59,591 nt of DNA from a virus: the IMG/VR virus record IMGVR_UViG_3300028823_000151; one strand, 5' to 3'. Both the position numbers and the translations under genes were made by a program. Within the stretch, counting starts at the first letter, position 1; every line of letters starts with the position of its first letter. Below the pieces are notes generated by a model. The model did not search any database. It was not told where the DNA came from and was given only the letters and a program-made list of their open reading frames with translations. Below, piece after piece: positions 1 through 55,213 of this stretch.

Positions 1-144
1 AAAAACAATTTTTCTAACTGTTTTCCACTGTTCGCATTAAGTTCTCTGCCAGCTATTTGATTTAATTCATCTTGTAGATCGTACCTTAAATCATCAAGTT
101 GCATTCCTGTTTTGTACAGCTTTTCTTTATCAACCCTTACACCT
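1..144. repeat. terminal overlap, left copy (identical to 59448..59591)
   Basis: Base-by-base comparison of the first and last 144 nt shows them identical. Confidence 0.95.
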
Positions 145-797
145 GTTCTTCTCATTTGTAAAAGCAATGGAAACAATCTCATCTCTATGTCGTATACATT
201 CATTAAGTTTTGATCTTCCAATAATCTTTTTTGTTTTTGAAAAACTTTGTAAGTAAGTAAAGCATCTTGTGCACCATAAGGTGCAACAACTAATGCTGGC
301 AAAGTATACAATATTTTATTGTCAACCCTACCTTTAGGAAACTCTATACCGTTATGAATCATATACTCCTTAATATCCCTATAGTTTTTTCCAATACCTA
401 AATATTCTTCACCCAAGGAATCTAAACTGTAAGTTAATTTATATTCATCAATAAGTGGTTCAGCTATTTGGACATCATTATATACACCATTAACAGGTAT
501 TCCTTCATAATTTATTAACCAATCTAAGTCGTATAATCCATTGGCAAATATTTTATGATTGTTAGAACTTAACTGATCAATAATATATTTACGATTTAAA
601 TTAGCTTTTTCAGGAGTCACATCAAAATGATTTATTGGATAATATTCTGAAAGTTCTCCATTAGAAAAGGAAACTCCAGTAACGTATCCATCTTTACGAT
701 AGACACCTGGACCCTTTTCTTTTAGTAAAGGGTCCTTTGATTCTATATCAACTGCTATTTCTTTATCACCTTTATATTGATAATAGCTTAACTTCAT
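1..797 (-). CDS. DNA polymerase I family (PolA-type), N-terminal 3'-5' exonuclease part; same gene as 58388..59591, joined across the circular junction (about 618 aa in total)
   Basis: My minus-strand translation from the ATG at 797 (AAGGAGGA upstream) reads MKLSYYQYKGDKEIAVDIESKDPLLKEKGPGVYRKDGYVTGVSFSNGEL... DIE is the ExoI DxE motif. The stretch I translated by hand (797 down to about 650) has no stop; I did not verify the rest of the frame down to position 1 codon by codon. The ATG at 104 equals the ATG at 59551 and is in frame (797-104=693). The ORF is missing from the track because it runs off the window edge. Confidence 0.85.
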   Translation of the reverse strand, partial: MKLSYYQYKGDKEIAVDIESKDPLLKEKGPGVYRKDGYVTGVSFSNGELSEYYPINHFDVTPEKANLNRKYIIDQLSSNNHKIFANGLYDLDWLINYEGIPVNGVYNDVQIAEPLIDEYKLTYSLDSLGEEYLGIGKNYRDIKEYMIHNGIEFPKGRVDNKILYTLPALVVAPYGAQDALLTYKVFQKQKRLLEDQNLMNVYDIEMRLFPLLLQMRRTGVRVDKEKLYKTGMQLDDLRYDLQDELNQIAGRELNANSGKQLEKLF

Positions 798-1255
798 CTT
801 AGAAATTCCTCCTTTATATCAAATATTTCTAAAAGGTTTTTTACAGTATCAACACCTATTTTTCCTTCCCATTTTGTATAGTCATTGTGATACTCTATAT
901 CGTAGATCACTACAGGAATTTTAAATAGATGCATATACTTTAAACATTGATCACAAGGACCATGAGTAACTAACATAATAAAGTCACTTAGATCAGTATT
1001 GTATCCAAGATTTTTAAAGCAATCGAATATCGCTCTTGGTTCAGCATGAATAGCCCAACATCCATCTTGTTGCCATTCATACTCTTTTCGTACACATTTT
1101 TCACATGGAACTTCAGCCCCTCCATGACCTACTCCAACAATCTCACCTGTATTTTTATACATTAAGACTGCACCTACTTTTTTCTTAAGACATTGGGATG
1201 TTTCTGCCATAACCTTTGCAAGCTCTACAGCGTCTAAAAACTTTTCCTTATTCAT
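794..1255 (-). CDS. deoxycytidylate (dCMP)/cytidine deaminase family zinc enzyme
   Basis: Carries HAEPRAI (HAE catalytic/zinc motif), HGPCDQC (PCxxC) and CLKKKVGAV. GGAGGGG lies upstream of the ATG. The gene overlaps the hydroxymethylase gene by 8 nt. Confidence 0.85.
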   Translation of the reverse strand: MNKEKFLDAVELAKVMAETSQCLKKKVGAVLMYKNTGEIVGVGHGGAEVPCEKCVRKEYEWQQDGCWAIHAEPRAIFDCFKNLGYNTDLSDFIMLVTHGPCDQCLKYMHLFKIPVVIYDIEYHNDYTKWEGKIGVDTVKNLLEIFDIKEEFLR

Positions 1256-2072
1256 ATTCCCCTCCTATGTATCCTATGTGTTTAAATAAAGTTTGACTAT
1301 ATAATTCTAATAAATAGTCATCACACCCCTTTTCAAATTCAGAACGTTTAAATTCAGAGATACCTATTAAATTATAAACTTTAGATAACTTTTCTTTTAT
1401 AAGAAGTAAATTTCTTTCGTACATGTGAAGACTACCAGTCTGATGATTATAGTTTCCTAGTTTTATGTCATAGTTTGAACGTAACTCCTTAAGCATCTTT
1501 AATTGTATTAAACAAAAGAAAGGAACATCATAAGGTAAACCATACCAAATATCTGAAGACCTCATCTTAACAAATAAATGTAGTTTCCCTCCTCTTATAA
1601 AAAATTGTAAAAACATTGTACACGGATTGTCATTACTAGGATGAGCATTTTCTCTGTTATATATTGTCATAACAGCTTTCTTGCTGTCCTTATTTTGTAA
1701 CAACATTTCCCTTGCATATTCAAACTGAGTGTAGTTGTGATGGTTTCTATCGTGTAACAATAGTTTTCCATAGTTACTAAAGATTGTTCTTCCATCATCT
1801 GAAACCTTGTTCCAGAATTTTGAATGCTTAGAAATTTCTTTTAGAAAAGGGCTTCCTGAAGTATAGAATTCTAATTCCCCTTTTAAATAATCTATAGACA
1901 TATCCCTACAAGTTGCGAAACATTTTTTAGGCTTTGTCAAAGTGAAACTATAGTCTAACAGTTCAAAAACCTTTTCTCCTTTTCTGTTTAATATACTATA
2001 GTCAAAATCATTGTACACTTTATCCATTAAGCAACAATAAATTTTATTAAAATCATTCTGAACTATCTTCAT
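1248..2072 (-). CDS. deoxypyrimidine-monophosphate hydroxymethylase, thymidylate-synthase superfamily, T4 gp42-like
   Basis: GELEFYTSGS (cf. T4 gp42 RELEWYKSKS), NPCTMFLQFF (catalytic Cys), KMRSSDIWYGLPYD and TGSLHMYERN (cf. VGSLHVYSRH). The ATG at 2072 with GGAGGGG 6 nt upstream is preferred over the TTG at 2075 used by the track. Confidence 0.8.
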   Translation of the reverse strand: MKIVQNDFNKIYCCLMDKVYNDFDYSILNRKGEKVFELLDYSFTLTKPKKCFATCRDMSIDYLKGELEFYTSGSPFLKEISKHSKFWNKVSDDGRTIFSNYGKLLLHDRNHHNYTQFEYAREMLLQNKDSKKAVMTIYNRENAHPSNDNPCTMFLQFFIRGGKLHLFVKMRSSDIWYGLPYDVPFFCLIQLKMLKELRSNYDIKLGNYNHQTGSLHMYERNLLLIKEKLSKVYNLIGISEFKRSEFEKGCDDYLLELYSQTLFKHIGYIGGEYE

Positions 2073-2141
2073 CAACTTCCCCTCCTGTTGTAATAAACAT
2101 TATACATAAGTTTATAATAGACTTGATTAAAGTCGAAATTA

Positions 2142-2759
2142 TCATTCATTACTTTTTTCCTCCCTTATGTCTGGGGTGACTGGTTTTCCTTCATATTTAG
2201 GCTTCTCTGTAGGATACAGTCCATGGATTCCAAGACGACCTTCCCAAAATTCTCTGCCCTTATTAAATTTTTTCTCACACTCTATAATTCTACTGCTTAA
2301 AATTTGAGCGTATCTTTCTATTGGTCCATAGATATATCTATTTCCTAAAGTATGTTCTTCAAAACAATATAAGTATGCTTCCATTTCATCAGACAATTTA
2401 AAAAGAAGTAATTGATCTTCCGTTAAGATATTTTCTATACCTTTGTCTGACCAAGGTTTAAGTTCTTCAGGAAGTGTTTCCTCTTCAAGTACACTCCAAG
2501 CTTCTTTTGTCTTTTCATTTTTGTTTCGTATCAGCCTATTCATATCGCCTGTAAAGGTCTCTGCAAAATCATGATTCATAAGTATAAATAAAATGTCCTC
2601 ATTTATTTCTACTCCAAACTCTTTACAAAACAAATAGAACAACGTGGCAGTTCCGTGTCCATGTTCGCATAGATTTTGTGGTCTTAAAACAAATTCCATT
2701 TCAAATCTTTTGATTGAAATCATTGTTTTTCTTTTGTCTAAATAATTTTCGATATTCAT
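2142..2759 (-). CDS. HD-domain 5'-deoxynucleotidase, YfbR-like
   Basis: RPQNLCEHGHG...LMNHDFAETFTGD...KLSDEMEAYLYCFEE parallels E. coli YfbR (ENVSEHS...YHDASEVLTGD...KQADALCAYLKCLEE). AAGGAG SD present. Confidence 0.75.
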   Translation of the reverse strand: MNIENYLDKRKTMISIKRFEMEFVLRPQNLCEHGHGTATLFYLFCKEFGVEINEDILFILMNHDFAETFTGDMNRLIRNKNEKTKEAWSVLEEETLPEELKPWSDKGIENILTEDQLLLFKLSDEMEAYLYCFEEHTLGNRYIYGPIERYAQILSSRIIECEKKFNKGREFWEGRLGIHGLYPTEKPKYEGKPVTPDIREEKSNE

Positions 2760-2761
2760 AT

Positions 2762-3829
2762 TTACTCCTTTATTAGTTTTGATATATGTGGTTTTAGTTT
2801 ACCTATTTTGGAAAACTCAATTAAATTATTGTACAAAGGTTCTTTAGGATGTAACTTCTGTATTTTTTCAACTGTATGTATACAGTCGCCATAAAAATAT
2901 TCCTTACCCCAGTAAGGATATAAACCTACACGAAAACTTCTTTGACTACATAGAACACATGAAATAAGATCTTCTCTATATCCTTCCGCAAGTAGTGCTC
3001 TAACCTTTTGAAACTTTTCACCTTGCCAAATATCAAGTACATGTTCTTCGTTAACGTTACCTAAGTCTATACACTTAGCACCATTACTACAACAAATATC
3101 TACGATTCCATCATAACCTATTGTCATATATTTGTAGGGTTCTTTACATACTTTTCTTAATGGAAAGTCCTGTAATTTTGAACCTGTATATTTTTCCCAT
3201 TGGGAAAGTTTTAGGTTGCCTCCCCAATTGTGCATACGTCTTGTAACGTTACCATCACAATTAAATATGTCACTTTCGTCTGTTAAGATAATTGTTTTAT
3301 GTTTATAACCTTTATAAGAAAAAGCATTAACGTTGTCTTTATAATAGTCATAAACTTGTATTCCTTTTATTTCTAAAATTCTTTTGTTTCTTTCTAGTTC
3401 ACCTATAAAGAAATCCCTTTGTGCCTTACTATAAAAATCTGTTTGAGCATAATTAAGACCCTTGTCAAACAAGTCTATAAATTCAAATATGTTTTTACTT
3501 TTATAGACTTCAGTATTTGTTATTATAAGTATCTGTGCCTTTGGCATTTTTTCTCTTATAATACCTATGTACTCTCCTACATTCTTATGTAGAGTTGGTT
3601 CACCTTGTAAAGAGATTGATATACGTTTTGTTTTTTCTGTCAGGTTATCTACAATATTCAACAAAGTTTCTTTTGTTATTCTACCAGTAGAAGCTTGTGA
3701 CCTTCCACAGAAAGAACAATTAAGGTTACATCCTCTTACAAATTCTATACGAACCTGATTTGGTTCTGTAAAAACAAGTAGATTATGTTTCCTTAATTCT
3801 GCGACATGCTCCTTATCATACATTTCCAT
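2762..3829 (-). CDS. radical SAM enzyme with C-terminal SPASM/twitch-like Cys-rich domain
   Basis: VRGCNLNCSFCG is the CX3CX2C radical-SAM cluster motif. The C-terminal VCKEP...GIVDICCSNGAKCIDLGNV...ISCVLCSQ resembles an auxiliary Fe-S (SPASM) domain. Confidence 0.85.
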   Translation of the reverse strand: MEMYDKEHVAELRKHNLLVFTEPNQVRIEFVRGCNLNCSFCGRSQASTGRITKETLLNIVDNLTEKTKRISISLQGEPTLHKNVGEYIGIIREKMPKAQILIITNTEVYKSKNIFEFIDLFDKGLNYAQTDFYSKAQRDFFIGELERNKRILEIKGIQVYDYYKDNVNAFSYKGYKHKTIILTDESDIFNCDGNVTRRMHNWGGNLKLSQWEKYTGSKLQDFPLRKVCKEPYKYMTIGYDGIVDICCSNGAKCIDLGNVNEEHVLDIWQGEKFQKVRALLAEGYREDLISCVLCSQRSFRVGLYPYWGKEYFYGDCIHTVEKIQKLHPKEPLYNNLIEFSKIGKLKPHISKLIKE

Positions 3830-3831
3830 AG

Positions 3832-4689
3832 TTACCTTCCGTTATATTTTCTAAACTTTACTTTTTGATTTCCAGTGTAAGCATTAAGATACTTAACATA
3901 CTTTTGATATTCACACAACCAATGTTCAACTTCCCTTAAGGTTATTTTTTCTTCTGGAAAGTATATTCTAAATTCTTCTTCCATTACTTCCCTTACAACT
4001 ACTGCATCAGGCAACCAATCTCTTTGTTTTATTCTTACAGTAGGATAACCAAACCTTATAAGGCTCATTCCTTGTCTTGCCCCAGGACCCATGTTTGCAT
4101 AGGTATTTTTATCGGTTGGATTAAAGTAGTCTGTGTATTCAAAATCACAAGCATATTCGTATGCCATAAAACCACCAACACCAGGAAATTGTTTTAGAAA
4201 ATCTACAAGCCTTTCCATAGAGTTTTCTTTAATAACTTCTTTTATATAATCGTTAGCTTTTAAACTTTCAATTAAAAAGAATGGAGCTTCATACGTTTCT
4301 AACCAACCACCAGGTACTCTTGGATTTCTTATAAAGCATGAAGAAAATAATTTTTCCCCTTCTTCTTTTCTACTACTAAGAAAATCTTTTACTTCAGATA
4401 AATTGTCCAGTTTACAGTTTTCTTTTATTCTACAGAATGTAGAATATGTAGAAATAAACCTGTATAAAATTATTAAATCCCATCTTTCAAAGGGAAGTAT
4501 GTTTTCTATTAACCACTTTGTACACTTATCGTATTGACGAAACACATTACAGAAAAAGAAATTTTGGAATATCTCATCCTCAGTCCAAGGAGCTGGCATT
4601 CCTTCTTCCTTTAATTTGTAAATCTTATGTCGTTCAATAGCCGTATCTAAGAAGTGATTAAAGTGTTCAGAATTAAAATGGTTATTCAT
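3832..4689 (-). CDS. putative DNA base hypermodification protein, alpha-glutamyl/putrescinyl-thymine pyrophosphorylase (aGPT-Pplase)-like
   Basis: The N-terminal ERHKIYKLKEEGMPAPWTEDEIFQNFFFCNVFRQYDKCTKWLIENI matches my recollection of the conserved start of this family (..R..I...R..G...PWT.D.IL....FCN.YR..DR.....). This rests on memory only and was not searched. Confidence 0.5.
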   Translation of the reverse strand: MNNHFNSEHFNHFLDTAIERHKIYKLKEEGMPAPWTEDEIFQNFFFCNVFRQYDKCTKWLIENILPFERWDLIILYRFISTYSTFCRIKENCKLDNLSEVKDFLSSRKEEGEKLFSSCFIRNPRVPGGWLETYEAPFFLIESLKANDYIKEVIKENSMERLVDFLKQFPGVGGFMAYEYACDFEYTDYFNPTDKNTYANMGPGARQGMSLIRFGYPTVRIKQRDWLPDAVVVREVMEEEFRIYFPEEKITLREVEHWLCEYQKYVKYLNAYTGNQKVKFRKYNGR

Positions 4690-4706
4690 ATATTTCTCCT
4701 ATCATC

Positions 4707-5624
4707 TTATTCATATCCTTTTAAAAATGTATTAGTTCCAAGTATAATTTTCATACCTTCTTCAGCTGGTATATAAGGTTCCTCGCCTTCAGGTAAAAAT
4801 CTTTTCCAGTCTATTGTACAATCTAATCTTTCCTCATCCCATAGTCCGTTGTTCTTTATTTTAAGATCAACATACCCAGGAAATTCTTTACATAATTGTT
4901 TAGCGGATTCAGATTGTGCTTCTACTGTTCTTGTTTCTGAACATCCACCTTTGTATCCTGTTCCAGGGTCACCACAGCACCAACGAGCATTGCTTAAAGA
5001 CTTGTAACCTTTTGACAATAATTTTAATTGTACATAACGATCACTCATAAAAGGAACAGGCATTTCATTAATCTTTATACCTTCCTTTATTAAAGTTGGA
5101 ACATGGTAACAAACGAATCTTATAATTGGAATATTCTTAGGAAACATGTATTTAATTCCTTGGCTTCCAAGCTTCAATGGCAGTCCAACTATTGGGTACT
5201 CCTCATTACAAAGTTGTATACTTTCATAAAGTATTTTATTAAAGCAATCGTTTGCAATAAAGTCTTCATGCCTTGAAGTATATTTTGAAGATAGATTTTC
5301 ATCTCTGAAATACAAGTTTATATCATCGTCAATTATAAATAGGTATTCAGTAAAATTTTCCTTTGCTATATCAAAACACTTTTGTCTTTTATCTGCGATT
5401 GTAGAATCATCAGGTACAACAAAGACAGGTGCATAATTATCTACAGCTTTTCTATAGTCACTTGCTTCACTTTCTCGAACTATAATTTCGTATAGATAAT
5501 TAAAGCTAAAAGGGTCTATATGTTTCCATATACCTATTCTTTTTTCTATAAGATGTATCCTATTTCTAGATGGAATACTTATAGAATAATTTAAGTTTGT
5601 TAACTTATTATAAATTTCACTCAT
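4707..5624 (-). CDS. GT-A-fold glycosyltransferase-like protein (possible DNA-base glycosyl/other group transferase)
   Basis: YSISIPSRNR near the N-terminus and LFIIDDDINL (DxD) are GT-A hallmarks. They resemble phage IPSYKR-type/TET-associated glycosyltransferases. The assignment is weak. Confidence 0.4.
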   Translation of the reverse strand: MSEIYNKLTNLNYSISIPSRNRIHLIEKRIGIWKHIDPFSFNYLYEIIVRESEASDYRKAVDNYAPVFVVPDDSTIADKRQKCFDIAKENFTEYLFIIDDDINLYFRDENLSSKYTSRHEDFIANDCFNKILYESIQLCNEEYPIVGLPLKLGSQGIKYMFPKNIPIIRFVCYHVPTLIKEGIKINEMPVPFMSDRYVQLKLLSKGYKSLSNARWCCGDPGTGYKGGCSETRTVEAQSESAKQLCKEFPGYVDLKIKNNGLWDEERLDCTIDWKRFLPEGEEPYIPAEEGMKIILGTNTFLKGYE

Positions 5625-7038
5625 TCATAGACCTCCTAAAAATACTTTCGTAACCGAATTGTGAATTAGAATGTACAATATGTAAATTCTTTTTTGCTCT
5701 TGTTAAAGCTACATATAAACATCTTAATTCAGAATCCAAGGCTTCTACATTTCGTTCAAGGTTATTGTCAATAGTTTTAGTTACATCTAACAACAAAACA
5801 ACATTGTCAGCTTCACCACCCTTTACTCCATGTATTGTATTCACTTCACAATTTGTTTTAGTAACATCAACTTTGTTTTTAAACAAGTCTTTAAAATAAG
5901 TTTTCTCGTTTATATCAAAGTTCAGAGAATAAAACCACGGATCTTTAATGTTTATAATGTCTCTTAAATAAGGTTTAAGTGATAGGTCAGTATAAATTTG
6001 TTCAGGATCATACTTCCTATGTTTTTCATAAATCCTTACAGCGTTATACTTTTTCATATCAACACTATACCTGTGCTTATATTGAAAAGTCATTCCTAAC
6101 TCCCGTAACCTTTTTCCATATATAGATAAGTGATAATTATTTCTGGCTAGAAAGTAGTAAGATTCCTCATTGTTTATAGGTATCTCATCTACTTTATTAT
6201 AAAAATAAATTTCACCACCTTCTTGTACAGGGTCAAAGATTTTATCTACACGATTAGATATTTGTTTTGAAAATAGTTTAGAAAAATTTAGTATCTTTTG
6301 TCTAAGTCTGTACGATTTGTCCAACACAATGTTTTCACTATGTTTTGAAAGATTTAAAAAATGTTTTATATCAGAGCCTGACCATTCATATATTGCTTGG
6401 TCATCATCCCCTGCTATATAAACTTTGTTACAATTTCTAAAAGCTACTTCACAAAATTTCCATTGCAAGGATGTAAGGTCTTGTGCTTCATCAATTATAG
6501 CTACTTGAACAGGTAACGGTTTATCTTTTTTAATAAACTCTACAATTAAATCATCAAAATCCTTTACTCCCATTTCAGTTTTAAATCTTTCATAGTTATT
6601 GGAAACAAAATTTACTTTCTTTACATCTAAATCCTCCAACAATATTTCAGCGGTCCTTGGATTATTTTTCTTTAGAGAAACATAAAACAAATATTTATCA
6701 TCGTTATTGATAAAGTCCTCTGTGTAGTAACCTACAAAGTTCATACCCATTGCCCTTGAAAACTCTTTATAATTTTTCTTGGAAATCATTTCATACCTTG
6801 ACATTCCAAGGTCTCTAAAAGCTAATGAATGAATAGTTCTAAAATAAGGTAAGTCAGAATCTTTATAACCAAACTTTTCAGTAGCTCTATCTCTTCCTTC
6901 ATAACTTCCTTTCTTTGTAAAAGAAACAAAGGCAATTTTATCTGAATCATAATCATCCAAAATGTCAGAAAGTAAGTTCAATAAGTACGTTGTCTTTCCA
7001 CACCCTGGAGCTCCAAAGATCATTGTTGTTTCTTGCAT
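5617..7038 (-). CDS. superfamily 1 (UvrD/Rep-like) DNA helicase
   Basis: FGAPGCGKTT (Walker A), AIIDEAQD (motif II), AGDDDQAIYEW (III), TIHGVKGGEADNV (V) and LYVALTRAKKNLHIV (VI). The ATG at 7038 immediately follows the stop of the upstream gene; the track start at 7056 is a TTG. Confidence 0.85.
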   Translation of the reverse strand: MQETTMIFGAPGCGKTTYLLNLLSDILDDYDSDKIAFVSFTKKGSYEGRDRATEKFGYKDSDLPYFRTIHSLAFRDLGMSRYEMISKKNYKEFSRAMGMNFVGYYTEDFINNDDKYLFYVSLKKNNPRTAEILLEDLDVKKVNFVSNNYERFKTEMGVKDFDDLIVEFIKKDKPLPVQVAIIDEAQDLTSLQWKFCEVAFRNCNKVYIAGDDDQAIYEWSGSDIKHFLNLSKHSENIVLDKSYRLRQKILNFSKLFSKQISNRVDKIFDPVQEGGEIYFYNKVDEIPINNEESYYFLARNNYHLSIYGKRLRELGMTFQYKHRYSVDMKKYNAVRIYEKHRKYDPEQIYTDLSLKPYLRDIINIKDPWFYSLNFDINEKTYFKDLFKNKVDVTKTNCEVNTIHGVKGGEADNVVLLLDVTKTIDNNLERNVEALDSELRCLYVALTRAKKNLHIVHSNSQFGYESIFRRSMNE

Positions 7039-7039
7039 A

Positions 7040-7498
7040 TTACCTGTCCAGTCCAAACAAAGGTAGAGGATCCCTTAACATAACTCCACACTTTAAAGGG
7101 GATATAAAATCATTTGTACTATTATAATAAAAAGTTTTACCTCTTCTATCTATTAAAAGGTAAGTCACTAAAGATTTATCTTTGCTAAACTTAATTCCAT
7201 AAAGTCTTATTGGATATCTCACACTATAAGAATTAAATTTTCTAGGTCTATTCTTTTTGTGAAAACCTTTCTTATGATAATCTAAAAACAAATATTGGTA
7301 TGTTAGATACTCATAACTATTTCCAAGATACTTAACTCCGCTTGGATTATATTCAAACTGTTCACAAGTATCGTACTTAAACATTTGTCCTACACGTTCT
7401 GAAAGTTCATCAAATGAAGGGATAAAAACTTCACCTTTAATAGATACAGTAAACAAAAGAACTATAGTTATAATTGTAAAAAATATTATTTTCTTCAT
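7040..7498 (-). CDS. secreted or membrane-anchored hypothetical protein
   Basis: N-terminal MKKIIFFTIITIVLLFTVSIKG looks like a signal/anchor sequence. The gene is packed tightly between the primase and helicase genes. Confidence 0.55.
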   Translation of the reverse strand: MKKIIFFTIITIVLLFTVSIKGEVFIPSFDELSERVGQMFKYDTCEQFEYNPSGVKYLGNSYEYLTYQYLFLDYHKKGFHKKNRPRKFNSYSVRYPIRLYGIKFSKDKSLVTYLLIDRRGKTFYYNSTNDFISPLKCGVMLRDPLPLFGLDR

Positions 7499-7509
7499 AA
7501 TTTTCTCCT

Positions 7510-9129
7510 TTAAAAATCTTCGATAAAGTCTGAAAAGTCTGGTTCAAAACTTTTTTCTACAGGTTCAAAGTAATTAAGTAATTCCTTCTTAACTGTAACC
7601 ACTCTAAGTTTTTTCCTTTTATCTTTTCCATTAGATTCTGTATTTACATCCTTATTCATTTCCGCTTTAAAGTCGTCTTTCAATAAACGATATACTTCTT
7701 GTTTATCAAAATTAAGCCCACGCTTTTTATCATTAACGTACACAACTAGATCCCTCATACGGAACCAATATTCTCCGCTAGAAGAATCAAAAAACACACG
7801 ACCATCTTCAATTTGTCTTCTGTTTTCAGCCGGGACTCTTCCAGTAATAAACTCGAATACACTAAGCTTCAATAATATTATTGGAGAAGTATCATCAGCT
7901 TCATCTATAGTTTTTACGTCAACTTCTTTTAGAGCTTGGTTAACCTTTTTAAACCATTCGTGTTGCTTTAACTTTGTAGGAATTTCATAAAGTTCCCTCA
8001 TACACAATTTAATGAAAGTGTCCTGTTTCAATAATTCATCCTCACTTTTAAAGACTAACCTTGTATATTTTTCTTGATCCTGTCTTCTAACTTCCCATTC
8101 ATAATAAGGTTGTTTAGATTTATATTGTGTTAGAACTCCACACTCTATAGTTGAAAAGTATCCGTCATCTTTTCCAACACCAAATTCCCTTTTACGACAT
8201 TCGTTCTTATTACAATAATCTGAACATGGAAAGTCATTACATTTATACTCGTAATCTCTTTTTCGTAAAGATGAAACAATTGTTTTTTCGACCTCCTTTT
8301 CTGATAATGGATATTTTAAATTTCCATTTGCCTCTAATAACTGTTGTTCAAAAAAGTCTTCATCCTTTTTCTTTAAATAAACACCTAACGAAAACAGAAA
8401 AATATTTCTACCTGAATTAAAATCCAACGGATCTAAAATTGTTATTGACTGCAAACAAGGTGGTGCGTCATTATAATCTAGATCATGTAGAAATTCTCTC
8501 ATATCCTTTACGGTTGTCATCTTTCCTTTTATATAACTAAGAGCTTCAGGTAAAGACAATTCTTGTCCTTCTTTTATTGCGACTTGTTTTGTCTCCTTAT
8601 GATTGTAGTAAGGTAAGTTAATTGCATTACCTATTTCTCCATCCCTTAGTTTAGTTTGCTTAGGAAAAATTTCAACAGTCCTATTTGTTTTGTTTTTAAC
8701 GTAAGTATCTATTGCTAATATAGAAGCCATACTTTTCATTATCTTTACAGCTTCTTTAGGACTCTGAGCTTGTTTGAAAAAAGAATACAAGTGCAATCCT
8801 CCACTTTTACTTTTGAAAGGAACCAATGGAAATTTATGTTTGTCTATAGCTTCAATAAAAGTTATCATGTCCTCATTATATATGTCAATATCTATAGCTG
8901 AGAAAAAACATTTACTGTCTTCAGATATGGGGATTATTCCCAGTCCTTCTTTACCTTCTAAATGTTTTTTATAATCTGTTATAGTTATTAACTTATCTTT
9001 TACAGTACGATACTCCCCTTGAAGCTTTCCATTTACCTCGTCTTTTCCGTACACTAATTTTAAATAATTGTTTTTAGAACCGGAAAATAATTTTTTAAAT
9101 TCCTCAACATCATGTGAATTTAGTGACAT
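7510..9129 (-). CDS. archaeo-eukaryotic primase (AEP/prim-pol) superfamily DNA primase with Cys-rich C-terminal region
   Basis: FFSAIDIDIY (DxD), SKSGGLHLYSFF (sGxGxH) and EIFPKQ. A later segment, CNDFPCSDYCNKNEC, looks like a zinc-binding region. Confidence 0.7.
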   Translation of the reverse strand: MSLNSHDVEEFKKLFSGSKNNYLKLVYGKDEVNGKLQGEYRTVKDKLITITDYKKHLEGKEGLGIIPISEDSKCFFSAIDIDIYNEDMITFIEAIDKHKFPLVPFKSKSGGLHLYSFFKQAQSPKEAVKIMKSMASILAIDTYVKNKTNRTVEIFPKQTKLRDGEIGNAINLPYYNHKETKQVAIKEGQELSLPEALSYIKGKMTTVKDMREFLHDLDYNDAPPCLQSITILDPLDFNSGRNIFLFSLGVYLKKKDEDFFEQQLLEANGNLKYPLSEKEVEKTIVSSLRKRDYEYKCNDFPCSDYCNKNECRKREFGVGKDDGYFSTIECGVLTQYKSKQPYYEWEVRRQDQEKYTRLVFKSEDELLKQDTFIKLCMRELYEIPTKLKQHEWFKKVNQALKEVDVKTIDEADDTSPIILLKLSVFEFITGRVPAENRRQIEDGRVFFDSSSGEYWFRMRDLVVYVNDKKRGLNFDKQEVYRLLKDDFKAEMNKDVNTESNGKDKRKKLRVVTVKKELLNYFEPVEKSFEPDFSDFIEDF

Positions 9130-9452
9130 ATTTCATCTTTATCCTTTACCTCATAAACCTTTTCTTTAACGTACAGTTTTTCATCTTCAAGATAAAACTG
9201 TTCGATACAAATACCCTCTTCATCCGGTGCAGGTTTTCCTGGTAGAACAAAAGGATATTCAAAAAGTTCCTGAGCCTCTATGAATACAGAATCATTAATC
9301 CTTATAGCTTTTAGTTTTCTTATTCTATTTCCCCTATTAACTAGAGCACGAATAGAAACTGAACTTCTATTTGTTAATTTTGAAAATTGTGTTACTAACC
9401 AATAATCAGTTCCATCTATGTTTATAGTTTTCTCATTATAAACCTGGATCAT
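9120..9452 (-). CDS. hypothetical protein, possible helix-turn-helix DNA binding
   Basis: The ORF overlaps both neighbours. YWLVTQFSKLTNRSSVSIRALVNRG looks excisionase/MerR-like. Confidence 0.4.
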   Translation of the reverse strand: MIQVYNEKTINIDGTDYWLVTQFSKLTNRSSVSIRALVNRGNRIRKLKAIRINDSVFIEAQELFEYPFVLPGKPAPDEEGICIEQFYLEDEKLYVKEKVYEVKDKDEICH

Positions 9453-9720
9453 CTTTTCCTCCTAGATTGATATTACTTTTAAATTTGACAATTTTGTTTC
9501 CACCCACAACAATCATCTCCTTACTTTTAGGGTGAATTATTTCTCTTTGTTTAGTTTCCTTTAATTCAAAGGTTCCGAATCCTCTAAAAGTCACTTTTCT
9601 ATTGTTCTCTAATTCTTTAATCACTATTTCAAATATCAAATTTATTGTATCAACTACCTTTTTTCTAGGAAGATTTAACTGCTTAGAAATATTTTCGGCT
9701 ATTTCTTTTTTCGTAGCCAT
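9436..9720 (-). CDS. HU/IHF-family (type II) DNA-binding protein
   Basis: MATKKEIAENISKQLNLPRKKVVDTINLIFEIV...FRGFGTFELKETKQREIIHPKS has the typical HU fold signature and beta-arm. GAGG SD present. Confidence 0.85.
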   Translation of the reverse strand: MATKKEIAENISKQLNLPRKKVVDTINLIFEIVIKELENNRKVTFRGFGTFELKETKQREIIHPKSKEMIVVGGNKIVKFKSNINLGGKDDPGL

Positions 9721-9728
9721 ACTTTACC

Positions 9729-10208
9729 TCATATCAATATGTTTTCCTCCATAAGTAAAGTATCCATTAACTCTCTTTTTGTAGTACATACACAAAAGTT
9801 TTTTGGACGTGGTAAATTTCTCTTAAATATTTCGTATACTAAATAAGGTAAGTGTCCTTCAGTTACATATACAGTATCTTTAGACAATAAGTAAACACAC
9901 AAAAGAGCTTTATCTAATTGTATAGAAACAACGTTACCTTCCAATAATGGAAAAGGCTTTTTGATATATGAATAAGATTCTCTTACAATTTCAATAAAGT
10001 TTGGAAGTTTCTTCCTTGAATAAATGTATATAACATTTCCAATATTTGAAGCTCGTATACCTTTAATTTTGCATTGCTCTGAAATATAATATGCCTGCCC
10101 AAAATATTCTGCACTGTAAGAAAATTTTGGATACCCGTCTGGAGCTTTATCTAATTTTGTGATTGCTACTATTTCATTTGTTCTTAATTCATTAGTTCCT
10201 TGTTTCAT
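9729..10208 (-). CDS. hypothetical protein
   Basis: The ATG at 10208 is preceded by AAGGAG at 7 nt (MKQGTNEL...). The track start at 10274 would overlap the upstream gene. Confidence 0.55.
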   Translation of the reverse strand: MKQGTNELRTNEIVAITKLDKAPDGYPKFSYSAEYFGQAYYISEQCKIKGIRASNIGNVIYIYSRKKLPNFIEIVRESYSYIKKPFPLLEGNVVSIQLDKALLCVYLLSKDTVYVTEGHLPYLVYEIFKRNLPRPKNFCVCTTKRELMDTLLMEENILI

Positions 10209-10218
10209 TATTTTCTCC

Positions 10219-10518
10219 TTAACTAAAATATTTTTTATTATAGTAAAGTAAAACATTGTACAGCCTATACACATAAAACAAAAACACTGTATTTATTAAA
10301 GGTATAACAGCGACAATAAAAGTTAACTTACAACTGCTAAGTAAGTTCTGACAATCCTCAATGTCCTTTGAATTACCTTGTCTGAACACTGGGATATTGT
10401 ACAACATAAACACAAGATCTTTATCCAAAATCTTTTTTCTTACAATAAATATAAGAATGATGCTTGCTAAATAAACTATAGCCAAACAATATGCGAATAC
10501 GAATTCAAATAGATTCAT
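10219..10518 (-). CDS. small membrane protein (2-3 TM)
   Basis: Hydrophobic segments FAYCLAIVYLASIILIFIV and FIVAVIPLINTVFLFYV. AAGGAGGG SD present. Confidence 0.5.
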   Translation of the reverse strand: MNLFEFVFAYCLAIVYLASIILIFIVRKKILDKDLVFMLYNIPVFRQGNSKDIEDCQNLLSSCKLTFIVAVIPLINTVFLFYVYRLYNVLLYYNKKYFS

Positions 10519-10527
10519 AAACCCTCC

Positions 10528-10818
10528 TTAATGTTTTCTATGTACTTCAACTTTACCAATTGAATTAGTTATAATTTCTTCTAGCAAAGAGTCCAATATA
10601 GAATTAACGGATAGATAAATGAATATACTAGACATAGCTCTAAACTTTTTGTCGTGTAACATCTTTGTACTTATTAACTCTATATTTCCAGTGTCGTTTG
10701 TTAGAGTATTCATCTTACTAATTTCACTAAAGAATTCAAGTATGTCTTCAAGGTCATACCCTAACCTTTCAAAGAAATCTTTTAACTCATCCATTTCCTG
10801 TTCTTCCAACTTATCCAT
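10528..10818 (-). CDS. acidic hypothetical protein
   Basis: AAGGAGG SD. The N-terminus is very acidic (MDKLEEQEMDELKDFFERLGYDLEDILEFF). Confidence 0.5.
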   Translation of the reverse strand: MDKLEEQEMDELKDFFERLGYDLEDILEFFSEISKMNTLTNDTGNIELISTKMLHDKKFRAMSSIFIYLSVNSILDSLLEEIITNSIGKVEVHRKH

Positions 10819-15328: not shown

Positions 15329-15654
15329 ATTTGCCTCCTTTCAAAATCTGAAATTGTTGTTTCTTCACAGTTGTTACACAAAAAATTTAATCTTGCTAAT
15401 TCATATTCTTTGTTTGTAATTAACCAACCACAATTTTGGCATTGCCAAAATGAATTTCGTTCCTTCTTTTGTTCTTCAGACAATTCCATAAGAAATTCCA
15501 TTACTGTATCGTGATCAACTTTTGCAACTGCTTGTAAGTACTCGATCATAAACTCTGTACTTTTGTCGTGGAAGTCACACTCCTCTTTTGCCATTACTAA
15601 CTGAGCGTATTTCTCATCACTTATTTCCATACTATTCCTCCTTATACCGGCCAA
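15325..15654 (-). CDS. zinc-finger hypothetical protein
   Basis: AAGGAGG SD and the Cys pairs CQNCGW...CNNCE. Confidence 0.5.
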   Translation of the reverse strand: MAGIRRNSMEISDEKYAQLVMAKEECDFHDKSTEFMIEYLQAVAKVDHDTVMEFLMELSEEQKKERNSFWQCQNCGWLITNKEYELARLNFLCNNCEETTISDFERRQI

Positions 15655-16079
15655 ACGTAAGGTAAGTTTCGTTGAGTATCAGGCCACAAAGGTAAATAAA
15701 ATTCTTCATACTTAGCTATTAAGTTTGAACGATGAGCTTCAATAAAGTTATCATCTATCCAATATGGTTTAACAGGTTCATCATCGTTAACAAGTGTTAA
15801 TAAATATTTGTAATGTTTATAACATTTCTCATTTTTGTAACCTCGCTTAACCCATTCTAACATAATATCATATAAGTAAACTTTAATAAGGTATGATTCA
15901 TAACCCTTCCACATTTTAACAGCCGAGTGGTTTGCCCAACCGTTAGTTGTAAGTTTAGTCTCTGAAAGTAATAAACAACGAGCAATCTGTATAGCTTCAA
16001 CTCGTTGCTTACCTAACCGCCTATAATCAAGACATTCAGCAGTATTGGAAATATTGTGATCAGTGATAAATGTTTGCAT
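15642..16079 (-). CDS. putative pyrimidine-dimer DNA glycosylase-like (endonuclease V/Pyr_excise-like) protein
   Basis: MQTF...AECLDYRRLGKQRVEAIQIARCL...WANHSAVKMWKGYE...WVKRGYKN matches my recollection of a small family annotated this way. Not verified. Confidence 0.45.
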   Translation of the reverse strand: MQTFITDHNISNTAECLDYRRLGKQRVEAIQIARCLLLSETKLTTNGWANHSAVKMWKGYESYLIKVYLYDIMLEWVKRGYKNEKCYKHYKYLLTLVNDDEPVKPYWIDDNFIEAHRSNLIAKYEEFYLPLWPDTQRNLPYVWPV

Positions 16080-20213: not shown

Positions 20214-20603
20214 ATGTCTAAAGAATTTGATCAAAAGAAAGAACAAATAGTCGCATGTTTTGAAAGGACGTTTGATAAGAACATGGCCTACACAAAACTT
20301 GGACTAACGGATAAGGAAATAGAACTGCTTGAAAACGACAAGGAGTTTCAACAACGTTTGGAATTTCGTCTTATAGACAAGCGTGAAGAATTGATAGACA
20401 AGTACTCAGAGTTTATGGAAAGTGATAATGAAAGTATTTCCTTTAAGGCTACACAAGAAATGGCACAGGTCCTTTATCCGGATTTCTTTAAGAACAAAAG
20501 GGAGTCGGGAATTATTATCAACAATAACCTAACCGACTTTAGTAAGTTCACAGATGATCAACTTAAAGTGATTATACAAAAAGGGAAATTAAGAAATGAA
20601 TGA
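20214..20603 (+). CDS. hypothetical protein, possible terminase small subunit
   Basis: Lies upstream of terL and has an HTH-like segment, MAYTKLGLTDKEIELL. The evidence is position only. Confidence 0.3.
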   Translation: MSKEFDQKKEQIVACFERTFDKNMAYTKLGLTDKEIELLENDKEFQQRLEFRLIDKREELIDKYSEFMESDNESISFKATQEMAQVLYPDFFKNKRESGIIINNNLTDFSKFTDDQLKVIIQKGKLRNE

Positions 20604-20877
20604 TCAAATAGAAAAGAATTTTACTTACCATGTACCAACTGAAGATGACATTTCTGTTTTGTCTATGATAAGACAAACCGCAAAGGACTTTGTTTACTTG
20701 TTAGATGAATTTTGTCCAGACTCTCGTGAACGTTCTTTAGCTATAACAAAAATTGAAGAGTCTGTAATGTGGGCCAATGCTTCTATTGTAAGAAACAAAA
20801 CTACATGGAAGGATAAACAGGATCCTTTAGAGGATCTTAAGAATGGAATAAAGATTGTAGAGGAAAACTATAAGTGA
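20596..20877 (+). CDS. hypothetical protein, possibly Acb2/Vs.4-like cyclic-nucleotide-binding anti-defence protein
   Basis: NFTYHVPTEDDISVLSMIRQTAKDFVYLLDEFCPDSRERSLAITKIEESVMWANASIVRN follows a widespread phage pattern (F.YH.P...IR....L...I....P.SRE.SLA.TK.EE..MWAN..I.R). I associate that pattern with this family from memory only. Confidence 0.35.
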   Translation: MNDQIEKNFTYHVPTEDDISVLSMIRQTAKDFVYLLDEFCPDSRERSLAITKIEESVMWANASIVRNKTTWKDKQDPLEDLKNGIKIVEENYK

Positions 20878-52295: not shown

Positions 52296-53582
52296 TTACA
52301 ATTTTTGATAAACACATTTCAAAGAAGGAAATCTTAAACTTATTTCTCCATTTTCATCTTCTATTTCAGAGAAATAACGGACGGTTACAGTTTTCCCAAC
52401 AATTAAACTTGGATGCTTGTACCAAGAAATTCTTTGTGAATCTGTTAATCCACTTCCAACCCTTTGTTTAAATCCACTATGTTCAATTACAATGTTTCCA
52501 CAACAATCTTGTTGTATACCATCTATAACTTTAGTTCCTACAACTGTATCCACTACAACATATTCATCATCATAGAAAGGCTTTACTTTTAAAAGTTCAT
52601 TGGATCTTTTAAACTTTGTTGTACAATTTTTTCTCAACATTAAACCTTCCCATTCACTTGGAATACTTTCAATTAATAAGCTAAGTTCTTTTTTAGAGTA
52701 GATTAAAGTTTGATCAACAAGCTCTATAAACTTACAATCCTTAACATTATTTGCAAGCTCATCGTATCTTTTTGTAAATACTGTTTCAGTTTCTGTATCA
52801 TCAAATTCTTGTGTACTATATTTATCAAATACAAAAAACTTTGGACTCTCAATAGTATAATTTTTTCTTCTTATAAGTTTCATAATGGATTCAAAATCTT
52901 CATTACCATTTTCATCCACAACACATATTTCTCCATCTAATATTTGTCCTCCTAACTGTATATTATTTACTGGATAATTGTTTAATATATCTTCACTCAG
53001 CTTATCTAGTGTAAAAAATTCTTTTCCATGTCTAGAATAAAACCTTACTTCATCCTTAAATACGAACGCTAAGCAACGGACACCATCAAGTTTTCTACTT
53101 GCATACCAATCATCTTCCTTAAAGTCACACATTCCTTCTTCATAATCTTTTCCCAGAGGAACTAAAAACTCAGAAATTAAATTTGGAAAAGCTTCATTTA
53201 TTGTTTTTACAGATATTCCACATGAAAGATCTTTGTCTAATATTTTTAATATTGTTGCTTCATACAGTCCGTTTTGTTCTATAAAACTTACGCAATGTGC
53301 TATTGCTGTATCGCCTGTTATTCTCCTTGAACTCAAGTCTGTAAGTAGATCAAATATATTATATCCTTGTCTTAATTCTATTTTATACTTTTCATTTTCT
53401 TCATACAACAAAGATTCTATTCTATCAGAAGTAACATAAAAATTTATCATTGGATTATATATAAGTGCTAAGAGTCTTGCACACTTTTCAAATTTAGCAA
53501 TTACTTGTATCTTCCAATACTTGCTATTGTCCTGTGAACAAAAGTGTATAAGTTGAGTCATACTTTCTAATATAGTTTCCAT
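52296..53582 (-). CDS. ATP-dependent DNA ligase
   Basis: SRKLDGVRC (motif I KxDG), ILDGEI (III), FFVFD (IIIa), EGLMLR (IV) and LLKVK (V). Confidence 0.85.
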   Translation of the reverse strand: METILESMTQLIHFCSQDNSKYWKIQVIAKFEKCARLLALIYNPMINFYVTSDRIESLLYEENEKYKIELRQGYNIFDLLTDLSSRRITGDTAIAHCVSFIEQNGLYEATILKILDKDLSCGISVKTINEAFPNLISEFLVPLGKDYEEGMCDFKEDDWYASRKLDGVRCLAFVFKDEVRFYSRHGKEFFTLDKLSEDILNNYPVNNIQLGGQILDGEICVVDENGNEDFESIMKLIRRKNYTIESPKFFVFDKYSTQEFDDTETETVFTKRYDELANNVKDCKFIELVDQTLIYSKKELSLLIESIPSEWEGLMLRKNCTTKFKRSNELLKVKPFYDDEYVVVDTVVGTKVIDGIQQDCCGNIVIEHSGFKQRVGSGLTDSQRISWYKHPSLIVGKTVTVRYFSEIEDENGEISLRFPSLKCVYQKL

Positions 53583-54951: not shown

Positions 54952-55213
54952 TATTTCCTCCTATTATTTCTATTTTATTTGAACTTATTTTAATTTCAGA
55001 GATATTTACGTTAGTAAAAAACTCTGGAAAACTAGTTTCATGTAACACTACAAGTTCGTTTTCCTTTTGTTCTAACAAGGTTTTTGTCTCTAAAATTTCT
55101 TTCATTAAGGTTACTCTTCTATCACATAGTGAAATAAAAGAAAGCCAATTTTCAAAAGTTAAGTTGTCCTTTTCCATAAACTCCTTTTCCAATTTAGTTA
55201 CTAAATTCTTCAT
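54944..55213 (-). CDS. hypothetical protein
   Basis: Overlaps both neighbours (8 nt and 4 nt). Confidence 0.45.
   Translation of the reverse strand: MKNLVTKLEKEFMEKDNLTFENWLSFISLCDRRVTLMKEILETKTLLEQKENELVVLHETSFPEFFTNVNISEIKISSNKIEIIGGNND

Follow-up and report, generated by a model that had tools for sequence, protein, structure and literature searches.

What does a phage do to its DNA when it carries a T4-type pyrimidine hydroxymethylase next to a glycosyltransferase, a radical enzyme and a protein otherwise met in thymidine hypermodification? The question is raised by the viral DNA of IMG/VR record IMGVR_UViG_3300028823_000151, a stretch of 59,591 nucleotides (nt) that was analysed whole and is here called the window. 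Six consecutive minus-strand genes, the island, encode a zinc deaminase, a homologue of thymidylate synthase (TS), an HD-domain 5'-deoxynucleotidase, a radical S-adenosylmethionine (SAM) enzyme, a stand-alone clade-1 aGPT-Pplase protein (Pplase1) and a glycosyltransferase (GT), numbered here as genes 1 to 6 (Table 1). All six family assignments, first made in a preliminary description of the window, are reproduced by profile, structure and solved-structure searches. The island is very probably a cassette for the hypermodification of a DNA pyrimidine. We suggest that this pyrimidine is 5-hydroxymethylcytosine (5hmC), that it is glycosylated, that the sugar is tailored by radical chemistry, and that Pplase1 and the GT act on the flipped-out base. 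We give this reading as a whole a probability of about 0.55.

The predicted hydroxymethylase and its partner genes

The nature of the base is indicated by the TS homologue. Its best solved relative is the deoxycytidine monophosphate (dCMP) hydroxymethylase of T4 (1B5E, 3.9e-20), with ThyA at ~1e-12. PMC13326640, a paper of 2026, gives diagnostic residues for the TS family in E. coli numbering: C146 is catalytic, position 143 (L143) holds a hydrophobic residue in methylases and an acidic one in hydroxymethylases, position 177 (N177) is Asn in enzymes acting on deoxyuridine monophosphate (dUMP) and Asp in those acting on dCMP, and D169N marks 5-hydroxy-dCMP synthases. The corresponding residues here are Cys152 (C146), Asp149 (L143D), Asp175 (D169) and Asp183 (N177D). 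In the alignment, Cys152 falls on the catalytic Cys of T4 gp42 and does not vary, Asp149 sits three residues ahead of it, and Asp183 aligns with Asp179 of T4 gp42. At the N177 position, Asn stands in M6 gp58 and in SP10 gp188, both validated dUMP hydroxymethylases.

We compared these residues across a set of 88 loci with a Pplase1 gene, related contigs included. It consists of 80 IMG/VR loci, which are the best 80 matches to one Pplase1 profile, together with earlier loci. The open reading frames (ORFs) of these loci were searched with the window, M6 and SP10 proteins and then with hidden Markov models (HMMs) built from the matches. All 13 TS-like ORFs of the window's clade carry Asp at the N177 position. 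Over the whole set there are 84 scorable TS-like ORFs, with Asn in 67 and Asp in 17; the Asp set is made up of the window's clade and two control phages, namely an Agathobaculum phage and the beta-glucosyltransferase-encoding VPE25. Every kinase-linked locus that has a TS-like ORF is of the Asn type, and among the 88 loci Pplase1 is found with a cytosine-type hydroxymethylase only in the window's clade. Because the TS homologue has the T4 gp42 signature, we predict 5hmC and not 5-hydroxymethyluracil (5hmU), and a cytosine is the likely modified base. The 5-hydroxymethylpyrimidine predicted in the preliminary description is thus narrowed to cytosine by the Asp at the N177 position. On the strength of these residues, the enzyme is predicted to make 5-hydroxymethyl-dCMP from dCMP.

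Three other functions of the TS family were considered for this gene and set aside. A true thymidylate synthase is rejected, since the protein falls below all NCBIfam ThyA cut-offs and has Asp at L143. A 5-hydroxy-dCMP synthase of the RB69 gp48 type is rejected because the D169 equivalent is kept (Asp175, in 'MRSSDIW'). A dUMP hydroxymethylase of the SPO1, M6 or SP10 type would have Asn at N177, where Asp183 is found instead.

The two neighbouring genes complete the nucleotide-pool set. For the deaminase, the sole solved relative at E<=1e-5 is the deoxycytidylate deaminase 2HVV (7e-8). Its gene is coupled to that of the hydroxymethylase, with an 8-nt overlap between the deaminase start and the hydroxymethylase stop, and it is present in seven of the nine cytosine-type relatives with a full island, the exceptions being loci L006 and L012. 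The HD protein matches E. coli YfbR (2PAQ, 4.2e-7), and its 'NHDFAETFTGD' aligns with 'YHDASEVLTGD' of YfbR (the HDxxE...TGD block). It is homologous to M6 gp59, whose gene adjoins that of the M6 hydroxymethylase. The same adjacency is seen in all nine full islands; in L020 the two genes are ~1.4 kb apart. We infer that the HD protein removes a canonical deoxypyrimidine nucleotide from the pool.

The putative tailoring genes and their variation among relatives

Gene 6 encodes a GT-A enzyme of the TAGT family, which matches phrog_842 (beta-glucosyl-HMC-alpha-glucosyltransferase) at 2e-25 over residues 12-275. Within its DxD motif D100 is invariant, and D99 and D101 are nearly so. The AlphaFold2 model (pLDDT 90.8) shows a GT-A fold. 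With this model, Foldseek finds in the PDB the GT2 wall-teichoic-acid glycosyltransferases RmlT, TarP and TarS at 6e-6, and in BFVD phage TAGT proteins and the beta-glucosyl-HMC-alpha-glucosyltransferase at 4.5e-20 to 1e-10 (TM 0.6-0.8). No match at 1e-3 is found by tblastn against 50,697 phage records, and a sequence search against PDB chains finds none for the GT or for Pplase1. The GT gene lies directly upstream of the Pplase1 gene in eight of the nine full islands. Judged by family and modelled fold, the GT is predicted to add a sugar to 5hmC in DNA, and we consider it reasonably likely that a sugar is attached to the base.

Gene 5 matches PF18723 over nearly the whole profile (residues 8-267 on positions 2-274 of 281) and phrog_2396 at 1.3e-41. 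PF18723 bears the Pfam name '5-hmdU DNA kinase helical domain', and we take it to be aGPT-Pplase clade 1 renamed; the basis for this is that M6 gp55 and an ORF of Nachito with the annotation 'aGPT-pyrophosphorylase clade 1' are both matched. The function suggested by the Pfam name, a 5-hydroxymethyldeoxyuridine (5-hmdU) DNA kinase, is rejected for gene 5, which has no kinase domain. Pplase1 is homologous to M6 gp55 (2.5e-17) and to residues 322-605 of SP10 gp186, not to the kinase half of gp186. Nor do the searches place it in clade 2; the clade-2 transferase M6 gp51 has no significant tblastn match in the window. Stand-alone PF18723 proteins of ~285 amino acids are common in metagenomes (99 matches), and the closest, besides the window protein itself, is 57% identical. 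One JGI protein of 437 amino acids (P0099) joins PF18723 to a chromo domain (PF00385), an unexpected fusion with a chromatin reader of eukaryote type.

The conserved residues of Pplase1 suggest an enzyme. When 34-45 diverse members are aligned, M6 gp55 and the SP10 domain among them, R20, F46, R51, D54, R77, F174 and Y177 are invariant, as are D182, D193, G203, G207, C259, E260 and K263. The motif REVEHWLCE, which shows little or no variation, lines up with QEVETVLCK of M6 gp51, where the catalytic EVExxLC of clade 2 lies, though the alignment is short. Kinase-linked and GT-linked Pplase1 proteins share the invariant Cys-Glu motif. For clade-2 enzymes, PMC8989533 describes the Cys and the neighbouring Glu as essential and proposes that the Cys adds at C6, expels phosphate and so forms an exocyclic methylene. 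Because the Cys-Glu motif is invariant and these residues have such a role in clade 2, we think that Pplase1 is catalytic and uses related chemistry. From this alignment, it is predicted to act on a 5-CH2-OR pyrimidine in DNA via Cys259 and Glu260. Any specific role assigned to Pplase1 is doubtful. Its AlphaFold2 model (pLDDT 95.2) is all-helical and has a faint likeness to the HhH glycosylases AlkA and Ogg (TM 0.3-0.4). The preliminary description had proposed to ask by profile search whether genes 5 and 6 belong to enzymes of host-envelope sugars, and the outcome speaks for DNA modification: gene 5 is a PF18723 protein, and gene 6 is a TAGT-family GT-A enzyme with structural matches to viral DNA glycosyltransferases.

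The sole strong solved relative of the radical SAM enzyme is BtrN (4M7T, 5.8e-14), and the match extends over both the core and the auxiliary-cluster domain; residues 228-299 align with residues 169-240 of BtrN (chain 4M7S). The Cys residues of its CX3CX2C cluster (C34, C38 and C41) are nearly invariant, and the C-terminal domain has five conserved Cys (228, 246, 247, 291 and 294). Because there are only five, a one-cluster Twitch domain is likelier than a two-cluster SPASM domain. Close homologues number about 11, all metagenomic and none from cultured phages, and tblastn against phage records gives only matches to the N-terminal core, in Erwinia jumbo phages. A viperin-like nucleotide dehydratase was considered and rejected, since the match is limited to the core (4e-5). 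In locus L004, a radical SAM enzyme of 428 amino acids with a B12-binding-like N-terminus (6711-7997) replaces the Twitch type; among solved structures, AprD4 is its best relative (6.9e-16). The secondary alcohol that BtrN oxidises belongs to 2-deoxy-scyllo-inosamine, and AprD4, a sugar dehydratase of the apramycin pathway, dehydrates a vicinal diol of paromamine. Two unrelated radical SAM types therefore fill this slot of the island, and both point to tailoring of the aminoglycoside-sugar kind. By analogy, we predict that the window's enzyme oxidises a hydroxyl group, either on the DNA-linked sugar or on the donor of that sugar; that it works on the attached sugar has an even chance. Our text search of the literature found no link of SPASM/Twitch or BtrN-type radical SAM enzymes to DNA hypermodification or hydroxymethylcytosine.

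Contigs with the closest Pplase1 relatives share the window's backbone and have the island in the same place with varied content. L012 has the window's island minus the deaminase, and L004 has the GT, the AprD4-like enzyme, Pplase1, HD, TS-like and deaminase genes. The island of L006, with its expansion at 6143-10618, consists of a sulfotransferase, a HAD-like protein, the GT, Pplase1, two further TAGT paralogues, the radical SAM enzyme, HD and TS-like genes, with no deaminase; it has three TAGT paralogues in all, and the sulfotransferase is of the carbohydrate type (Sulfotransfer_2). L011, with its expansion at 7897-9356, combines the GT, Pplase1, a second TAGT paralogue, a ComB-like 2-phosphosulfolactate phosphatase, the radical SAM enzyme, HD, TS-like and deaminase genes. 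There are two glycosyltransferases and two Twitch/SPASM radical SAM enzymes in L015 (9105-14298), and L013 and L023 hold GT-Pplase1-radical SAM triads with no adjacent HD or hydroxymethylase gene. Because the content varies in this way, we regard the island as a mobile, combinatorially varied module, and PMC8989533 describes such variation as typical of hypermodification clusters. In every relative, the island lies inside a replication operon of primase, helicase, PolA and SNF2 genes. A distant backbone relative from seawater, 023Pt_psg01, has a primase, a helicase, two small ORFs and PolA but no island. This embedding, together with the absence from 023Pt_psg01, argues for DNA as the target.

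The proposed pathway and its alternatives

We propose that the island works in two stages. Before replication, the TS homologue, with its T4 gp42 signature, would convert dCMP to 5-hydroxymethyl-dCMP. The dCMP deaminase would divert part of the dCMP via dUMP to thymidine monophosphate for the AT-rich genome, as in T4, and the YfbR-like HD phosphohydrolase would deplete a competing canonical deoxynucleotide. The triphosphate would come from host kinases or an unrecognised kinase, and the adjacent PolA would incorporate 5hmC. After replication, the TAGT GT-A enzyme, for which family and fold are evident and acceptor and donor presumed, would use a nucleotide-sugar to glycosylate the 5-hydroxymethyl group. 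This sugar would then be tailored by the BtrN-like radical SAM enzyme, most likely through oxidation of a secondary alcohol to a ketone, as its nearest characterised relatives suggest. Pplase1 would partner the GT on the flipped-out 5-CH2-OR pyrimidine, and its motif suggests a Cys-at-C6 mechanism like that of amino-acid:DNA transferases. The product would be a cytosine with a radically tailored glycosyl group, which would block host nucleases. A tailored glycan is the most economical reading because the relatives together have both radical SAM types, one to three GTs and a carbohydrate-type sulfotransferase. We tentatively suggest that the base is an undescribed one, a 5hmC glycoside with its sugar oxidised or deoxygenated by the radical SAM enzyme, and that Pplase1 has here a GT as its partner in place of a 5-hmdU kinase.

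Several points weigh against this pathway. The preliminary description had reported that the genome lacks a thymidylate synthase proper, a deoxynucleoside monophosphate (dNMP) kinase, a dUTPase or dCTPase and a 5-hmdU kinase, and at Pfam sensitivity this is borne out by the 49 window ORFs that were scanned. Pfam scans of these ORFs show no ThyA or ThyX proper, dNMP kinase, dUTPase or MazG, and no C5-methyltransferase or TET/JBP dioxygenase was found in them or in the island. The M6 and SP10 kinases have no tblastn match in the window, a kinase HMM finds none among window ORFs of >=60 amino acids, and the only recognised NTPase with a motif in a Walker A scan of the window is the helicase. Among the proteins of the M6-type 5-NedU pathway, M6 gp52 (a pyridoxal-phosphate (PLP) enzyme), gp53 (an SPL-like radical SAM enzyme) and gp54 (the kinase), like the gp51 transferase, have no significant tblastn match in the genome. 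Thus no dNMP kinase for 5-hydroxymethyl-dCMP was found, whereas PMC13326640 reports one in T4-like phages, including the 5-hydroxycytosine phages of the RB69/DLP3 type. No dCTPase was found either, and a YfbR-type monophosphatase has no obvious means of excluding dCTP.

Pplase1 and the radical SAM enzyme add to these difficulties. Foldseek of the Pplase1 model against the PDB gives a best E value of 0.7, with the solved clade-2 enzymes not matched, and hhalign links Pplase1 only weakly to clade 2 (E 0.072 for one sequence, 0.019 for profiles), a lead at the level of the motif only. M6 gp55 and the C-terminal domain of SP10 gp186 are dispensable for the reactions reconstituted in vitro, and all systems from which PF18723 was known until now hypermodify thymidine, with its role there undefined. 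The similarities to BtrN and AprD4 amount to 55-61 bits, so that the substrate could be the nucleotide-sugar donor, a nucleotide or a base, and no aminotransferase or reductase for a keto-sugar is seen in any relative. The base, the sugar and the product are all inferred from sequence and models.

The main rival is that the sugar serves only as a leaving group, which we consider unlikely. The GT would then replace the kinase; Cys259 of Pplase1 would attack C6 and expel the sugar, and another nucleophile would add to the exocyclic methylene. The radical SAM enzyme would rearrange or oxidise the new group, as M6 gp53 does, and the final base would be a non-glycosidic 5-substituted methylcytosine. 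This proposal draws on the composition of the 88 loci, where a TAGT GT alone accompanies Pplase1 in 43, a kinase or clade-2 transferase alone in 30, both in 2 and neither in 13 (Fisher p 4e-11). The two overlap loci are one contig family with a marginal GT match (6.5e-5), and when Pplase1 is clustered at 80% identity the counts become 27 for GT only, 24 for kinase/transferase, 0 for both and 9 for neither. A GT standing in for the kinase would account for this near mutual exclusivity, but two enzymes competing for one hydroxyl explain it equally well. The Cys-Glu motif common to both groups of Pplase1 and the adjacency of the GT and Pplase1 genes also fit a leaving group, though a glycoside is a much poorer one than phosphate. 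The two or three TAGT paralogues and the carbohydrate sulfotransferase of some relatives fit a retained glycan better. In addition, both radical SAM types resemble sugar-tailoring enzymes, and the SPL-like isomerase of M6 has no homologue here.

A further hint at Pplase1 as a transferase, and so in favour of the leaving group, comes from loci with a kinase and Pplase1. Nine of these (for example L031, L040, L044, L053 and L080) have no clade-2 transferase within the fetched flank. The possibility they suggest is that Pplase1 is itself a transferase; as a speculation, it might instead be the enzyme that turns phosphorylated 5hmU into thymine in phages of the SP10/PhiW-14 type.

It is improbable that the target is thymine or uracil. 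For this, the deaminase would move 5-hydroxymethyl-dCMP or dCMP into the uracil series and 5hmU would be incorporated, giving a kinase-less variant with a base-J-like glycosyl-5hmU. The translational coupling of the deaminase and hydroxymethylase genes is in its favour, and PF18723 otherwise keeps company with Asn-type (dUMP) hydroxymethylases, as the 67 of 84 scorable ORFs show. Moreover, 28 Asn-type loci, including the cultured phage PhiJL001, pair PF18723 with a TAGT-like GT and have no kinase. The window's own hydroxymethylase, however, has Asp at the N177 position as T4 gp42 does, and since the full islands of L006 and L012 do without a deaminase, deamination is not an obligatory step. 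T4 has both gp42 and cd and yet makes no 5hmU DNA. The Alphaproteobacteria phage PhiJL001 (AY576273.1, 2274-23131; L073) deserves mention in its own right: it has an Asn-type hydroxymethylase, a TAGT-like GT and Pplase1, with no kinase within 10 kb, and by these genes it is a candidate for glycosylated 5hmU.

A slightly smaller chance still is given to a joint action of the radical SAM enzyme with the HD protein on free deoxynucleotides before replication, like that of OxsB and OxsA for oxetanocin, so that the odd chemistry would reside in the precursor. Pairs of HD phosphohydrolases and radical SAM enzymes acting on deoxynucleotides are known, and in eight of nine relatives the HD gene has the radical SAM gene directly upstream of it. 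But in L004 the Pplase1 gene separates the alternative radical SAM gene from the HD gene, the triads of L013 and L023 have no HD or hydroxymethylase gene beside them, and the nearest solved relatives are BtrN and AprD4, not OxsB. That genes 4-6 modify an envelope sugar or another component of the host cell in place of DNA is very improbable: the closest solved folds of the GT are indeed wall-teichoic-acid GT2 enzymes, but among viral structures the GT has DNA glycosyltransferases as neighbours, at far better scores, PF18723 has no known setting other than DNA hypermodification clusters, and in every relative the genes stand within the replication operon beside a pyrimidine hydroxymethylase. 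We therefore keep a glycosylated and radically tailored 5hmC as the preferred reading.

Genome context and comparison with known systems

The window is a closed circular contig, since its first and last 144 nt are identical (positions 1-144 and 59448-59591) and translation reads across the junction; the genome is thus ~59,447 bp. The phage, a myovirus of ~59 kb, has structural genes like those of E217/Pam3-type myoviruses. The six minus-strand ORFs of the island are confirmed with the boundaries given in Table 1, as are the 8-nt overlaps at 1248-1255 and 5617-5624, and the gaps measure 66, 2, 2 and 17 nt. Genes called independently on an identical contig (Logan SRR5248172, locus L003) include the same six. 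A nucleotide search with the island returns only three short matches of 68-74% identity.

Table 1. Positions of the island genes, their neighbours and other features of the window
Feature	Position	Strand	Evidence or remark
dCMP deaminase, zinc (HAE / PCxxC), 153 amino acids (gene 1)	794..1255	-	PF00383 (dCMP_cyt_deam_1) 1.9e-13; phrog_174 2.6e-22
TS homologue with T4 gp42-type dCMP hydroxymethylase signature (gene 2)	1248..2075	-	PF00303 (Thymidylat_synt) 2.4e-21
YfbR-like HD 5'-deoxynucleotidase (gene 3)	2142..2759	-	PF12917 3.6e-17, 63.1 bits (cut-off 25.9); NF003009 6.7e-12
Radical SAM enzyme, single-cluster Twitch/SPASM C-terminal domain, BtrN-like (gene 4)	2762..3829	-	PF04055 1.6e-10; PF13186 1.8e-11
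Pplase1, stand-alone clade-1 aGPT-Pplase, no kinase domain (gene 5)	3832..4689	-	PF18723 ('HMUDK_hel') 1.9e-45
TAGT-family GT-A glycosyltransferase (gene 6)	4707..5624	-	PF20691 1.4e-7, 32.1 bits (cut-off 27.5); DDD (DxD) at residues 99-101
UvrD-type SF1 helicase	5617..7056	-	PF00580 3.1e-26; phrog_1967 3.4e-66; 8-nt overlap with GT start
Family A DNA polymerase PolA, 5' part	1..797	-	618 amino acids in all; runs over the circular junction to 58388
HU-like DNA-binding protein	9436-9720	-	
T4 endonuclease V-like pyrimidine-dimer DNA glycosylase	15642-16079	-	PF03013 4.5e-18
93-amino-acid protein with Acb2/Tad1 hairpin domain	20596-20877	+	PF24729 1.3e-18
ATP-dependent DNA ligase	52296-53582	-	
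PspC-domain protein	55210-55536	-	
SNF2-family helicase	55904-57550	-	

Circular closure splits the PolA gene over both ends of the window. Its product has the domains PF01612 and PF00476 in the gene call of the identical contig, and PF00476 is matched at 5.8e-61 on 58388-59551. The PolA start, at 797 on the minus strand, overlaps the deaminase stop by 4 nt. Because the gene starts there and wraps the junction to 58388, the island is transcriptionally upstream of PolA. The preliminary description had placed the island directly downstream of the DNA polymerase gene, which is right in plus-strand coordinates only; in transcription the island precedes PolA and abuts the UvrD-type helicase gene. 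The order of transcription is primase (of the AEP type), helicase, GT, Pplase1, radical SAM, HD, TS-like, deaminase, PolA and SNF2 helicase. This arrangement is not due to chance, since at least nine different contigs, from different samples, have the module in this place between helicase and PolA. A scan of positions 1-9500 found no minus-strand terminator-like site between genes, the sole one lying inside the radical SAM ORF, and promoter-like sites at chance level (46 found, 45.9 expected). This is compatible with one long operon and otherwise uninformative. A transfer RNA scan found none.

Several other features of the genome may be noted. The replication module also includes the ligase, SNF2-family, PspC-domain and HU-like genes of Table 1. 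The Acb2/Tad1 protein belongs to a family of sponges for CBASS/Thoeris signalling nucleotides and may be a second anti-defence function of the genome. The pyrimidine-dimer DNA glycosylase occurs in a phage predicted to bear bulky pyrimidine adducts. The tetranucleotide CATG occurs 107 times in the window against 160 expected, and no palindrome of four letters is strongly avoided; in the relative with no island, 023Pt_psg01 (MW574966.1, first 20 kb, L001), it occurs 0 times against 54 expected. The contrast is suggestive, as if one phage avoided the site and the other modified its DNA, but it is too weak to serve as evidence.

DNA hypermodifications of phages decide whether the DNA is cut by restriction enzymes, CRISPR nucleases and type IV systems, and enzymes used in DNA labelling and epigenetic sequencing come from their pathways. 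Those pathways that are characterised form three groups, in which a sugar is put on 5hmC or 5-hydroxycytosine, amino acids or polyamines are put on phosphorylated 5hmU, or glycosylation is initiated by TET. The island mixes parts of the first two groups and adds a radical SAM class. If the undescribed base suggested above is indeed made, the aGPT-Pplase superfamily would have its first cytosine-directed use and DNA modification its first radical SAM enzyme of the Twitch/SPASM type. It would also suggest, as a general rule, that phosphorylation and glycosylation are alternative ways of handing a 5-hydroxymethylpyrimidine to Pplase1. The 88 loci provide a testable rule, namely that Pplase1 pairs with a kinase or with a TAGT GT and almost never with both. 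This is the first functional handle on clade-1 aGPT-Pplase, which is widespread and whose role is undefined in M6, ViI and SP10 as well. Confirmation of the chemistry would mean a new DNA base, a DNA-directed radical SAM enzyme for sugar tailoring, and an environmental phage family with one to three sugars, sulfation and other variations.

The preliminary description had found no described pathway with this enzyme mix. That remains so, since M6, ViI, PaMx11, SP10 and SH-Ab 15599 need a 5-hmdU kinase and a clade-2 transferase, neither of which is present, and the papers on aGPT-Pplase found by our literature search deal with kinase-dependent thymidine pathways only. The mix is not wholly unprecedented, because its deaminase, hydroxymethylase, HD protein, Pplase1 and a radical SAM enzyme beside a polymerase have a precedent in M6-like clusters.

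None of the known systems compared here is matched as a whole in its defining features. In its predicted base the island is like the T-even phages, which glucosylate 5hmC. Both have the dCMP hydroxymethylase active-site signature, a dCMP deaminase and a TAGT-family GT-A enzyme (the beta-glucosyl-HMC-alpha-glucosyltransferase of T2 and T6), and in both the pool would be rewired before replication and the sugar transferred after it. The island phage differs in that it lacks the GT-B alpha- and beta-glucosyltransferases, the gp1 dNMP kinase and the gp56 dCTPase, and has an HD 5'-deoxynucleotidase instead. It adds a clade-1 aGPT-Pplase and a radical SAM enzyme, neither of which is found in T-even phages, and its backbone is unrelated.

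M6, ViI, PaMx11, SP10, PhiW-14 and SH-Ab 15599 use the 5-hmdU kinase (5-HMUDK) together with an aGPT-Pplase/AADT of clade 2, with tailoring by PLP, radical SAM, FAD and acetyltransferase enzymes. The island shares with M6-like clusters the homologues of gp55 (Pplase1), gp58 (TS-like), gp59 (HD) and gp65 (deaminase) beside a DNA polymerase, a radical SAM tailoring enzyme and, by a short alignment, a motif resembling the catalytic EVExxLC. It has, however, no P-loop 5-hmdU kinase, no clade-2 transferase and no PLP enzyme, and a glycosyltransferase takes the place of the kinase. Its radical SAM enzyme is Twitch/BtrN-like and not SPL-like, and its hydroxymethylase is of the cytosine type.

In TET/JBP-TAGT phage systems, the same GT family serves 5-hydroxymethylpyrimidine DNA, and paralogous GTs with sugar-tailoring genes are seen in metaviromes. 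There, 5-methylcytosine or thymine is oxidised in DNA, whereas the hydroxymethyl group of the island would be made on the mononucleotide by the TS homologue. The 5-hydroxycytosine arabinosylation of RB69 and DLP3 (PMC13326640) likewise begins with a TS homologue on dCMP and continues with DNA glycosylation by one to three sugars; the island differs in that it keeps Asp175 where these have D169N, and in that it has no arabinose-donor genes. Finally, BtrN of butirosin biosynthesis resembles the island's radical SAM enzyme in its CX3CX2C cluster and its four-Cys auxiliary-cluster domain. BtrN and AprD4 (apramycin) act on free aminoglycoside intermediates and identity to them is low, whereas we propose a DNA-linked sugar or a nucleotide-sugar as the substrate in the island phage.

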